A DNA stretch of 64,000 nt from Eledone cirrhosa (lineage: Eukaryota): assembly GCA_964016885.1 (NCBI GenBank), contig OZ024741.1:15066001-15130000 (forward strand), in the 5' to 3' direction. Under the pieces are notes generated by a model that saw nothing but the letters and a program-made list of their open reading frames with translations, made no database searches and had not been told where the DNA came from. This document shows, one piece after another, positions 42,378 to 48,574 of this stretch; position 1 is the first letter of the stretch; each line of letters opens with the position of its first letter. A program made the translations under genes and the position numbers.

Positions 42378-42641
42378 TTCTAAAAAACAAATCATACACA
42401 AAACGCCAGCACCAATAGTTTTGGAAGAGATGTCAACATGAATGGACCTGTTATTTTTATCTAAAGACATTTTTTCAAATTCCAACCCACCCGTCCCCTC
42501 AATCTATCTTATTTTTCATTTTTTCTTTTGATGAAGGACTAGCGTCTGAAACGTTAAGACCTCCTTGGTGCTATATCAATCGTTAACCTACTATATCCCT
42601 CCCATATACGATTGTGTTGTTATTTCTGTTTACCTTTTACA
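42378..42641 (+). mobile_element. ~265-bp non-coding dispersed element (type A) carrying a hammerhead-like motif, flanked by (TA)n
   Basis: Homologous to 44030-44308(+), 47477-47626(+) and 47644-47912(-). Ends ...GTTTACCTTTTACA then (TA)n. Confidence 0.85.
42524..42559 (+). ncRNA. Minimal hammerhead-like motif, type A (U3 variant)
   Basis: UCUU-UUGAUGA-A-GGAC-UAGC-GUCU-GAAAC-GUU-AAGA. Confidence 0.6.
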
Positions 42642-42711
42642 TATATATATATATATATATATATATATATATATATATACATATTCCCTTATTATATATA
42701 TCTAAATCGTC

Positions 42712-42846
42712 AGAGAGAGAGAGAGAGAGAAAGAGAGAGAGAAAGAAAAGAAAGAAAGAAAGAAAGAGAAAGAGAGAAAGAGAAAGAGAGAAAGAGAAAG
42801 AGAGAGAAAGGGAGATAGAAAGAGAGAGAGAGAGGGAGAGAGAGAA
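42712..42846. repeat. GA-rich microsatellite
   Basis: Seen directly. Confidence 0.9.
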
Positions 42847-43192
42847 AACATAGGTGAAAGTGAAGGAGAAAAAGTTAAGAAGAGGCAAGAATTAGAGAGT
42901 GTAGACAATAAAGAGCAACGAACGTAGAGGAGATTTGGATTAAGTGGGAGTTCTGTCGTAAGCTGTGGCTTGAAATAAAAGAAAATGAGATTTCTACGTC
43001 ACCACTGCCATCACCATCACACTTCTACCATTCTTCCTCTATCTCTCCCTCCATAGTTATAATATACCCCCCCCCCCCCCCTGCAGTTCATGATTCCATG
43101 TATTGCCCTCCATTTGCCATCCAAGATGTCCGTCATAACAATGGTGAATCACAAGCAACAATGGACGCCAATTACTCAAGACGATCGTTTTC

Positions 43193-43660
43193 TGGTGATG
43201 GTGGGGGGTGTAATGTTGTGGTAGGTGATGGTAGTGATGGTGGTGGTTGTGGTGGTGGTGGTGGTGGTGGTGGTGGTGGTGGTGGTGGTGGTGATGGTAT
43301 TGGTTGTGGTGGTGGTGCTGGTGGTGCTGGTGGTGGTATTGTTGTGCTTGTGGTGGTGATGGTGGTGATGGTGGTGGTGGTGATGGTATTGGTTGTGGTG
43401 GTGGTGCTGGTGGTGCTGGTGGTGGTATTGTTGTGCTTGTGGTGGTGATGGTGGTGGTGGTAATGATGGTATTGTTGTGCTTGTGGTGGTAGTCGTGGTA
43501 ATGTTTGTGGTGGTGGTGGTAGTGATGGTATTGGTTGTGGTGGTGGTGGTGGTGGTAATGGTGGTGGTGGTAGTGATGGTAGTGGTGGTGGCAGTGGCGG
43601 TGGTATGTGTTGTCGTGGTGGTAATGGTGGTAGTGATGGTAGAGGTGGTGGTAGCGGAGG
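43193..43660. repeat. (GGT)n-derived low-complexity tract with an internal ~87-bp duplication
   Basis: GATGGTATTGGTTGTGGTGGTGGTGCTGGTGGTGCTGG occurs at ~43293 and ~43382. Confidence 0.85.
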
Positions 43661-44029
43661 TGAATCTGAGATTCGGAATGGGAGTTTACTGGGTTTAATA
43701 GTAAAATTTTATTAAAAGCCGGAGAGAGAGTGTACGTGAATGTACATGCACACGTGTGTGTCTGTGTGCGTGTGTATGTTTGTTTCTATGTATATACATA
43801 TATATATATATATATATATATATATATGTGGGTGTGTGTGTGTGTGTGTGTGTGTGTTAGTTGTAATATCTTAATCAGAAAGTCATTCGAAAACTGTTGA
43901 GAGATAATGACGCCAAAAGTAAATGCAAAAACGGGCTGTTGCACTCTTACAAGTATTTTTCTGGGTTGAAGTGTGGTATACACACACACACACACACACG
44001 CGCGCGCACACACATACACACAGAGGCTC

Positions 44030-44308
44030 ACACACACAACGCCAATACCGACAGTTTTGCAAATGATGTCAACATGAATGGACCCGTTATTTTTATCTGA
44101 AGACATTTTTCTAACTCCAACCCGCCCGTCTCCTCAATCTATCTTATTTCTCATTCTTTCTTCCAGTGAAGGACAAGCGTCCGAAACGTTAAGACCCTCT
44201 TCCTTATGGAAGGGATATATTAGGTTAACCCTTATATCAAGCGTTAACCTAATGTATCCCTTCCATATACTGTGCCGATTGTGTTGTTATTTCTGTTTAC
44301 CTTTTACA
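44030..44308 (+). mobile_element. Type-A element copy with decayed hammerhead core (44159-44194) and an extra 25-bp fold-back
   Basis: UCUU-CCAGUGA-A-GGAC-AAGC-GUCC-GAAAC-GUU-AAGA. Same 3' end as the other copies, followed by ~300 bp of (TA)n. Confidence 0.85.
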
Positions 44309-44612
44309 TACATATATATATATATATATATATATACATATATACATATATATATATATATATATATATATATATATATATGTATATATATATATATATA
44401 TACATATATATATATACATATATATATATATATATATATATATATATATATATATATATATATATATATATATGTATATATATATATATATATATATATA
44501 TATATATACATATATACATATATATATATATATATATGTATATACATATATATATATATATATATATATATATATATATATATATATATATATATATATA
44601 TATATATATATA
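44308..44612. repeat. Long (TA)n microsatellite
   Basis: Seen directly. Confidence 0.96.
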
Positions 44613-45297: not shown

Positions 45298-45339
45298 TTG
45301 TTTCGACACACGATTTCATATCAAAAACATCGCAAAACA

Positions 45340-45710
45340 AATATATATATATATATAGGTGTGTGTGTGTGTGTGTGTGTGTGTGTGTGTGTGTGTGTGT
45401 GTGTGTGTGTGTGTGTGTGTGTGTGTGTGTGTGTGTGTGTGTGTGTGTGTGTGTGTGTGTGTGTGTGTATATACAGAGAGAGACAGAGAGAGAGGAATAA
45501 ATAAATGTCTTTCTGTGTATGTATGTAGATGTATATGTACATACGTATGAACGTATATATATATATATATATGTGTGTGTGTGTATGTATCTATGTGTGT
45601 GTGTGTGTGTGTGTGTGTGTGTGTGTATGTGTGTGTGTGTGTGTGTGTGTGTGTGTGTGTGTGTGTGTGTGTGTGTGTGTGTGTGTGTGTCGGTGTGTGT
45701 GTGTGTGTGT
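45340..45710. repeat. (TG)n/(TA)n compound microsatellite
   Basis: Seen directly. Confidence 0.95.
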
Positions 45711-47553
45711 CCATGTACACACATAACAGCAAAGACAATAAATTCCCTAGTAATCTTAGTGACCGTACTTAGTAATATGTGTTGAGCCAGCTCCAGCCAC
45801 CCTCACATCAACACCACATCTAATATTAACAAACAGAAATTTAACTATATAACTGAAACTGATATATTTTATAGCAGCAGTCACGTCTGTCAGTGGATAT
45901 TGTTTAACCGTTTATATACGGCTCCACCCCCTTCACATTTTACCTACAATTTCTACTCTGCTAAGATGGAAACGAAAGTGAAACTAAACATCGTTATATA
46001 TATATATATATATATATATATATATATATATATATATATATGAGTGTGTGTGTCTGCGTGTGTGTGAGTATGTGTGTATGTGTATACATACACTCTCACA
46101 CACACACACACACACACATATATATATATATATATACAAACAAACACATACACACACATATATATGTATATTTATATATATGTATGTATATATATACATA
46201 TACATGTATATATATATATATGTATATATTACCATAAACGTCACATGACATATTGATGTCTCTTCTTCTTCATCCTCTCAACCTCTTCCTTCCTCCTTTC
46301 CCCACCTATATCGCGCTACACCTATCTTTAACCACCTCCACTTTCTCTATCTCTTTCGTCTTTACCTCTCACTCCCCCCTCATTGCTTCCGCCCCCTTCT
46401 CTCCCCACCTCTCACCACCTCTTCTCTTCTCTCCCCACCTTTCTCCACCTCTCTCCCCACCTCTCCCCACTCCCGTTCTTCCGCTCTTTTTCTCAAGGGA
46501 ACCAGAAAATAGCGGGAAATAAAATGACAGATAATATATATGAATCGAGAAAATGAAAGTAGAACAGTAATTTAAAAATTACAGCCATTTTGTGGTGGGA
46601 AGCGACGGGGAGGACAGCATTGTATTGGTGCTGGTGTCAGTAGTAGATAGTACTGATGGTGATAGTGATGGTGATGGTGATGGTGAGGTGGTGTATTAAG
46701 GGAGGGATGAGAGGAATTATTGGTGAGCTACTTGTGTAGTTGTTACTGGAACAAAAATAAAAGCCACTTTCTATTTCTCAATGTTACCCTAAAGTGTGAT
46801 AAAACACCATTCGATACCATGTTATAATTACTTGCTATGATATCAGTGGCCGCAAAACAAAGTTTATGGTCGGAGGATATATATAAAAACAAATTACTTG
46901 ACGCATTCCTCTTATCTCTTTCATTCCTCAAAAGGAATGAGTTTGTTGTACATAAAAACATTTATTTATTTATTTATTTCTCGATTTATCTCTTTCTTTT
47001 ATTTAATTTATTCATTTATTAACGAGTCGGTGTTACGCATGCGTGAACCAGCGTCACAAAACATTTTTTTTTCACTCCGTGCATTTAATTGGTCGGCGTC
47101 GTAGAAACATAATATAAATATCGGTGGATTACCACCAGTACTGCCACTACCATCATCATCAATACGACAACTACCGCCCCACAATCATCATCACCACCAC
47201 TACATCACCACATTCAGCTCCACTACCACCACTACCACCACTACTACCACAACCACCACCACCATCACCACCAGTATAGAGAAAGAGAAGAAATGGGTGA
47301 GAAATATACAACCGAGGGGGTTGAAGAGGGAAATTAATTAGTTGATTACACATTAACTCACTTTATCCTCGCAGTATATTCAATATTATTATGTTCCTCC
47401 ATTAGATTCAGCATGTAATTATCCATGTTTATATCTGTGTCGGCCGTATATCAAGATATATATATATATATGTCAACTGTTATTTTTATCTAAAGACATT
47501 TTTTTCCAATTCCAACCCATCCGTCCCCTTAATCTATTTTATTTCTCATTCTT

Positions 47554-47589
47554 TCTTCTGATGAAGGGCTACTGTCCGAAACGTTAAGA
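47554..47589 (+). ncRNA. Minimal type I hammerhead ribozyme motif, type A, intact core
   Basis: UCUU-CUGAUGA-A-GGGC-UACU-GUCC-GAAAC-GUU-AAGA: helix I UCUU/AAGA, helix II 4 bp with tetraloop, palindromic AACGUU in place of helix III. Confidence 0.8.
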
Positions 47590-47731
47590 CCCTCTTCCTA
47601 CTATATAAAGCGTTAATCTAATATATATATATATATATATATGTGTAAAAGGTAAACAGAAATAACAACACAATCGGTACAGTATATGGAAGGAATATAT
47701 TAAATTAACGCTTTATATAGTAGGAAGAGGG

Positions 47732-47767
47732 TCTTAACGTTTCGGACAGTAGCCCTTCATCAGAAGA
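47732..47767 (-). ncRNA. Minimal type I hammerhead ribozyme motif, type A, intact core
   Basis: Exact reverse complement of 47554-47589. Confidence 0.8.
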
Positions 47768-48574
47768 AAGAATGAGAAATAAAATAGATTAAGGGGACGG
47801 ATGGGTTGGAATTGGAAAAAAATGTCTTTAGATAAAAATAACAGGTCCATTCATGTTGACATCTCTTGCAAAACTGTTGGTGCTGGTGTTTTGTGTATGA
47901 TTTGTTTTTTTAGAAAAGTGGATGATGGCGCGCGTCTACCTGAAATGGAAAAAAAAAACGTTTTGTAAAAAGAACTATACTTGTGCACGTGCGTAAGCAT
48001 GAGTTTGTGTGTGTGTGTGTGTGTGTGTGTGTGTGTGTGTGTGTGTGTGTGTGTGTGTGTGTGTGTGTGTGTGTGTGTGTGTTATTATAGGTCCGAACGA
48101 AGCTAAGAAGAAATGTGTGTGCATATGTGAGAAAAAGAGTGTGTGTGCATGTAAGTACGAACCTATGAGCAAAAGTATTGTATATGTATGTATGTATATA
48201 CGCATATGTATATATGTATATACATATGTATATACATATATATATATATATATGTATATATATATATATGTGTGTGTGTAAGAGAGCAAGAGAGAGAGTG
48301 AAAATATGGCCAGTTACGTGTTCAATATGGAGTATAACAGAAACTGATACCTTTTACCAAAGAAATGTGTGATGTCTTCCTGAATCTACATATAAACATG
48401 CATGTAGGGCCCTGTAACTCCTGGGGAAGCGGTAGGGTTGCCGTATTAACATACAGCGTCTCTATTGCATCTTTACATCTGGTGGAGCCCATCTCCTCTC
48501 CAAGTCTGGATACAGCAGATTTCTTCCAGAGAATGAGAGGAGAGAATGGAAGTGAGAAAGAGATATATAGGAAG

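Follow-up and report, generated by a model that had tools for sequence, protein, structure and literature searches.

Minimal type I hammerhead motifs in truncated, probably Penelope-like element ends of an Eledone cirrhosa locus

Four related segments and their family

We analyzed a stretch of 64,000 nucleotides (nt) of Eledone cirrhosa (assembly GCA_964016885.1, contig OZ024741.1, positions 15,066,001 to 15,130,000 of the forward strand), hereafter called the window and used for all coordinates below, in which a repeat element carrying a hammerhead ribozyme motif occurs in several copies. The window is repetitive DNA of an animal-like kind: long satellites occupy about 1-5 kb, 6.5-32 kb and 55-64 kb, and the sequence between them is rich in microsatellites. 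Copies of the element were sought within the window by blastn and nhmmer, using the longest one, copy D, as query, and four related segments, A to D, were found and none further. Copy A (42378..42640, + strand) is a 5′-truncated element end with the full 3′ tail, flanked by two (TA)n runs, and is 87.6% identical to D over 266 nt. Copy B (44028..44307, +) is also 5′-truncated, is preceded by a (CA)n run and terminates in (TA)n; the alignment shows a 26-nt inverted duplication inserted near 44204-44232. Copies C (47470..47626, +) and D (47645..47985, −) are inverted partners, and a (TA)n spacer (47627..47644, no strand) separates their facing 3′ ends. The blastn and nhmmer match of C covers 47477-47626 (150 nt); this copy has a short deletion near its 5′ end and is without the final 50 nt, the tail, which in D occupies 47645-47694. 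A, B and D share the same terminal base before a TA-rich run and differ in their 5′ ends, while C stops 50 nt short of that end, at an AT-rich point. The first-pass annotation of this DNA had described four copies of about 265 bp; the number of related segments was right but the common size was not, given the length of C, the insertion in B and the extension of D described below.

For the family as a whole we compared the stretch 47600-47960 with four of 14 sequencing runs at 80% likeness. In organism A, 12,088 of 17.1 million contigs (run X1) and 14,098 of 12.5 million reads (X12) matched, as did 6,048 of 17.6 million contigs of organism C (X6). The family is thus very abundant in two organisms, depth being a sign of abundance only and not a copy number. 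The matched part of D is 47912-47645 and its 5′ end is not fixed: read and contig depth, together with loose ends, show that family sequence extends beyond 47912 and reaches about 47985 or further. Depth over D reaches the end of the compared stretch, 47960, in three of the four runs, and loose ends behind 47956-47957 resemble, by eye, the next bases of the window. Another loose end, at 47784, is common to X1, X12 and X6; there the hammerhead and the 3′ end are shared and the upstream sequence is different, which suggests either a second subfamily or an exchange of the 5′ part. A pile of read ends at 47810-47813 in X12 was not counted as a sign of ribozyme cleavage, since it lies on AATT and was taken as a cut made in restriction-site-associated DNA sequencing.

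C matches D at 149 of its 150 nt, and the window therefore holds only three independent copies. D departs from the majority of organism A at 14 of the listed sites, mostly by transitions, and C shares 10 of the 11 such departures within its span. In the simplest reading, D had decayed before C was copied from it at the DNA level, a broken (TA)n end having folded back onto the AT-rich point in D, or the two arms were homogenized later. Alternatively, the pair may be one insertion from a minor source lineage in which both strands were primed.

A minimal type I hammerhead in every copy

All four copies contain, in this order, stem I UCUU, the core, one inserted A, a 4-bp helix II with a 4-nt loop, GAAACGUU and stem I AAGA. 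This arrangement is that of a minimal type I hammerhead, with a 4-bp stem I, the core CUGAUGA, the inserted A, a 4-bp helix II and GAAACGUU, and with a predicted cut after GUU. The motifs lie at 42524..42559 in A, 44159..44194 in B and 47554..47589 in C (all +) and at 47732..47767 in D (−), with helix II at 42536-42547, 44171-44182, 47566-47577 and 47755-47744, respectively. The helix II letters given in the first-pass annotation are correct for all copies, the positions attached to them being ends of stem I, and GAAACGUUAAGA, which it had called invariant, is indeed identical in 4/4 copies. The inserted A is likewise present in all four; G10.1-C11.1 is a G-C pair in three of them and G-U in A. 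Helix III is absent, and the palindrome ACGU (15.2-16.2), present in every copy, is such that two RNA molecules can, by its sequence, pair through it.

Measured against the consensus CUGANGA ... GAAA ... UH in type I topology, the core is intact in C and D, for which cuts are predicted after 47585 and 47736, respectively, and broken in A and B. The core of B reads CCAGUGA, with three changes, in line with the earlier proposal that this copy is dead; its helix II stem is that of the family majority. The earlier annotation had missed that the core of A is broken as well, by a change of C3 to U at 42528. G8 is unchanged beside it, and G10.1 now faces U through a CpG transition at 42547; the cut would fall after 42555. 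A compensated U3-A8 hammerhead variant has been described (PMC4209133), but A keeps G8 with U3 and therefore differs from that variant. Of the two cleavage sites that had been proposed, after GUU or after UUA, only the first survives, because it is the sole register that gives a 4-bp stem I; cleavage after UUA was rejected, as stem I is broken in that register.

Folding energy gives, in these predictions, little support by itself. The 36-mers reach z-scores of just −1.0 to −1.4, and the hammerhead dimer (−10.1 kcal/mol) is not the predicted minimum, another dimer fold reaching −16.5 kcal/mol. A transcript across the C/D pair is predicted to fold into one long hairpin that buries both intact hammerheads, and ribozyme activity at the C/D locus therefore appears unlikely. 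Nor did Rfam recognize the motif: at the gathering threshold there were 0 hammerhead matches in the 64,000 bases, and in E-value mode the 150 of 181 matches listed were all of microRNA type, on microsatellites and on the C/D hairpin, with no hammerhead among them. The modest z-scores and the missing Rfam match are what would be expected if the hammerhead look were a chance match inside an ordinary repeat. However, the full core, both helices, the inserted A, G10.1-C11.1 and the palindrome are all in register.

Scans of other sequence sets bear on the same point. The viral-contig scan gave 0 matches and the metagenome scan, with a pattern that left helix II free, six, none of which belongs to the window family beyond the motif. 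Four of the six (the near-identical L001, L004 and L005, and L003) form no helix II and were set aside as chance, as a chance origin of the window motif would also lead one to expect. By contrast, stem I is kept in the other two, and their helices II, although different, are paired, a property that the pattern did not ask for: L002 combines stem I, core and GAAACGUUAAGA as in the window family with another, fully paired 7-bp helix II, and L006 has a helix II of 3 + 3 bp. We therefore consider a chance match extremely improbable. The self-cutting motif itself is real, and of a kind already described in animals.

The L002 hammerhead lies at the end of an open reading frame (ORF), inside a 103-nt head-to-head inverted repeat. 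In the Atlas this ORF falls near unnamed eukaryotic clusters at 0.95; the nearest named clusters are GIY-YIG, at 0.87 and 0.86 and with 17% of members. We take the ORF to resemble the endonuclease end of a Penelope-like element (PLE). In L006, a solo minimal hammerhead of another family (2928-2966, −) stands between exon-like ORFs, which presumably belong to something like an animal formin gene; this hammerhead is probably intronic and antisense.

Helix II differences are private to the copies

The first-pass annotation had claimed that helix II covaries across the copies, with a freely varying loop. We tested this on the three distinct copies, using 500 shuffles. All 24 stem cells pair (24/24); six of the eight pairs are invariant and two vary on one side. 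Two-sided changes occurred at 0/8 pairs, and 500/500 shuffles reached the observed score, so that the covariation claim fails. Stem changes (2/24 site-copies) and loop changes (3/12) differ with a Fisher p of 0.31, and core changes (4/39) are as frequent as stem changes (p = 1.0). With the transition bias seen here, a random substitution preserves a pair with probability 0.39, and both do so with 0.15.

Family-wide data, with variant figures drawn from 40 of 204 variant rows, place these differences in context. The majority helix II is GGAC-UAGC-GUCC in both organisms. Relative to it, A has one C-to-U change at a CpG, B one loop change, and C/D one stem transition and two loop changes, one of these at a CpG. 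Three listed variant rows fall within the hammerhead, all of them where D departs from the majority. The majority share at stem position 10.3 is 0.99, 0.94 and 0.99, and at the two loop positions 0.97, 0.83 and 0.97, and 0.82, 0.66 and 0.80; the loop is thus not freely variable between source lineages. Among the rows listed, no core position showed a majority change in the three covered runs. Since each G-U pair is a private departure of its copy from the family majority, the G-U pairs in A and C/D are ordinary neutral decay and no proof of selection.

The model behind the covariation claim holds that the copies derive from different functional sources and that selection on helix II accounts for the retention of the G-U swaps. 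That every stem cell still pairs agrees with it, as does the better conservation of stem position 10.3 than of the two loop positions. Furthermore, among the rows listed, the majorities of the two organisms differ at 0 positions of the 36-nt motif and at 15 in the flanks, for which we estimate by hand a chance of about 0.15. On the other hand, no change is two-sided, no more than 1-6% of the family have the G that D carries at 10.3, the change in A is CpG to TpG and, of the two loop positions, one is a CpG too, the organism-A flank sites 47703 and 47801 are about as conserved (majority share 0.97-0.98 in X1), and the core is broken in two of the three independent copies. We judge this model quite improbable. 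Selection of the source elements for RNA structure probably did take place all the same, but the reason given for it does not hold, the differences being private departures and the core having been struck as often as the stem. Selection for structure shows between families, not among these window copies: two-sided, compensatory changes, absent from the latter, appear only in the comparison with the unrelated L002 and L006 and within a second hammerhead family of the window (see below). More generally, G-U swaps among a few old genomic copies call for caution, as they are what CpG decay and other transitions yield anyway.

Relation to Penelope-like elements and retrozymes

It is highly probable that the four segments are dead, 5′-truncated 3′ ends, from the pseudo-long terminal repeat (pLTR) region, left by a Penelope-like retroelement family of very high abundance or by a non-autonomous derivative of it. 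The position near the 3′ end, the 5′ truncation, the (TA)n targets and the 50-nt tail on one member of the inverted pair fit a PLE pLTR end. The PLE anatomy described by Craig et al. (2021, PMC8557442) comprises truncated 5′ ends, copies in inverted orientation, a tail of 30-40 bp on one end and microsatellite targets; here we observed 5′ truncation, a fixed 3′ end, an optional tail, an inverted copy and a microsatellite target. For the minimal hammerheads of PLEs, Cervera and De la Pena (2014, PMC4209133) list an extra base between 9 and 10.1, G10.1-C11.1, a palindromic 15.2-16.2 and families with sequence variety, and all four features apply to the window family at the family level. The type I topology, the 4-bp helix I and the lack of helix III are also shared with these metazoan motifs, which are mostly single dispersed motifs from truncated elements, as here; opposite-strand pairs 100-700 bp apart are reported as well (PMC4209133).

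Two better-known groups are close in anatomy. Poseidon of Anolis (PAc) likewise has a hammerhead near the 3′ end, AT-rich targets and an optional tail (PMC11167929), but its ORF starts at stem II, whereas the AUG in the core of our hammerhead reaches a stop within 2-8 codons, and the tail here is 50 nt. Hydra-clade and Naiad PLEs, including Hydra-1_Obim, share the (TA)n preference, 5′ truncation, inverted copies and a tail at one end, and GUU-type cleavage triplets like the one predicted here occur among Hydra hammerheads; unlike the window family, Hydra hammerheads possess a real stem III (PMC8557442). Identity with Hydra-1_Obim was rejected because the 3′ ends are dissimilar by eye, and three motifs of the window element are absent from the searched portion of the supplement of that paper. 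The sequence of the window family was not found in the text of PMC4209133 as far as it was covered. Penelope-like families are reported in Octopus vulgaris (PMC13282606), the parts consulted, supplement aside, making no mention of ribozymes, and a search of the octopus and cephalopod hammerhead and Penelope literature, with Repbase and Dfam outside its scope, found no description of this family.

If the segments are PLE ends, the RNA of the source element would carry a minimal type I hammerhead without a helix III of its own, and two motifs would pair via ACGU and cut after GUU. Such cleavage is probably weak and helped by an element protein: published PLE hammerheads are weak in vitro (PMC4209133), and that of the Anolis PLE needed the protein of the element (PMC11167929). 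Cleavage by hammerhead dimers has been described (Lunse et al., as summarized in PMC6765202). The GIY-YIG nuclease of the element would nick a (TA)n target, and reverse transcriptase, primed at the target, would start from either of two points separated by 50 nt, so as to include the tail or leave it out, and would usually stop early; Frangieh et al. (2024, PMC11167929) link an optional tail to the use of two start points in reverse transcription. The inserted copies would then decay neutrally, and the G-U pairs of A and C/D would be part of that decay.

Several observations weigh against a PLE origin. No reverse transcriptase or endonuclease ORF was found next to any of the four copies, and none of the three frames upstream of the D hammerhead shows, by eye, a recognizable GIY-YIG end. 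Helix II has 4 bp and a tetraloop, versus 7-8 bp in the minimal hammerheads of schistosome PLEs (PMC4209133), and the tail is longer than the published 30-40 nt (PMC8557442). The 3′ ends of C and D are turned toward each other, whereas PLE inversions have been described at the 5′ end (PMC8557442). The negative Rfam results count here too, and so does run X5, a possible RNA run, with only six matching records and none over the hammerhead. Finally, the L002 ORF has no Pfam match and no homolog-search match, and its GIY-YIG label, at under 0.9 in the Atlas, is only a lead.

The lack of any ORF within at least 340 nt would also suit monomers shed by a non-LTR retrozyme, that is, by a head-to-tail tandem unit of a few hundred bases that yields circular RNA and relies on a borrowed PLE protein. 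Non-LTR retrozymes resemble the window family in being small non-coding repeats with a type I hammerhead in which monomers are common (PMC7229834; bioRxiv 10.64898/2026.07.22.740005), and retrozyme families may consist largely of monomers and have their origin in pLTRs (bioRxiv 10.64898/2026.07.22.740005). They are nevertheless defined by head-to-tail tandem units (PMC7229834; bioRxiv 10.64898/2026.07.22.740005), and there are 0 head-to-tail pairs among the four window copies. Moreover, the copies are not permuted relative to one another but have a common, fixed 3′ end and varying 5′ ends, no 3′-to-5′ back joint was seen among the 15 of 45 joints listed, and the hammerhead belongs to the minimal class instead of the canonical one with a 6-bp helix I. 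A retrozyme origin is accordingly very doubtful.

Within the PLE reading, a more specific version can be put forward, although we regard it as unlikely: the family would be an ORF-less, possibly intron-bearing PLE derivative that spread in the manner of short interspersed elements (SINEs) in at least two related species, with its hammerhead under selection, and the C-(TA)n-D pair would stem from a single insertion event, with outward extension of the two nicked strands from one shared microsatellite, the reverse of the arrangement reported for PLE inversion. A possible splice acceptor, a pyrimidine run ending in CAG in the sense of the element, is suggested by the bases at 47934..47955 (−), about 170 nt upstream of the D hammerhead. 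As a PLE family, the window element adds one very abundant member to the known Penelope-type minimal hammerheads and leaves the mechanism unchanged.

A second hammerhead family and other features of the window

A second hammerhead family has copies at 34177-34434 (−), 37082-37339 (+), about 54440-54625 (+) and about 54710-54905 (+), with the hammerheads at 34232-34291 (−), 37226, 54522 and 54792. It has a long helix II and a palindromic AUAUAUAU stem III and ends in (TA)n. In three copies, helix II shows two-sided changes at 4/11 pairs; 12/500 shuffles reached the covariation score and 32/500 the pair count. This covariation, coming from three related sequences and a hand-drawn structure, is suggestive only, yet the second family is a better covariation case than the four-copy element. 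Eight hammerhead motifs of two families thus lie within 23 kb of the window, and for a proper study of covariation this genome would offer many natural hammerhead variants.

Two of the second-family copies close a 3.2-kb near-perfect inverted repeat (34100-37340), with arms of up to 509 nt at 100% identity. Their hammerhead ends point outward, a tail of about 80 nt is present on the left end only, and the whole has the form of a textbook head-to-head PLE insertion around AT-rich DNA without an ORF of 100 codons.

The window holds other features as well. A DNA-transposon-like element (38265-39690) contains a 311-aa ORF (38463-39398) that has no Pfam match and lies, in the Atlas, near unnamed and RAG1-like RNase H clusters at 0.90-0.95. 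Inspection by eye showed similar short segments, one at about 38270-38320 and one at about 39650-39685, together with an inverted pair near 37855-37885 and 38400-38435. A broken reverse transcriptase fragment of the long interspersed element type spans 53050-54400 (−; Pfam RVT_1, E 1.7e-15, at 53887-54249). The non-microsatellite segments 41050-41500 and 44615-45020 are, by eye, apparently related in opposite orientation. A SINE-like repeat that contains a B-box-like stretch, and in which ARAGORN finds no tRNA, is present in several copies at about 39880-40200 and 50470-50870; we take this repeat to resemble a cephalopod SINE.

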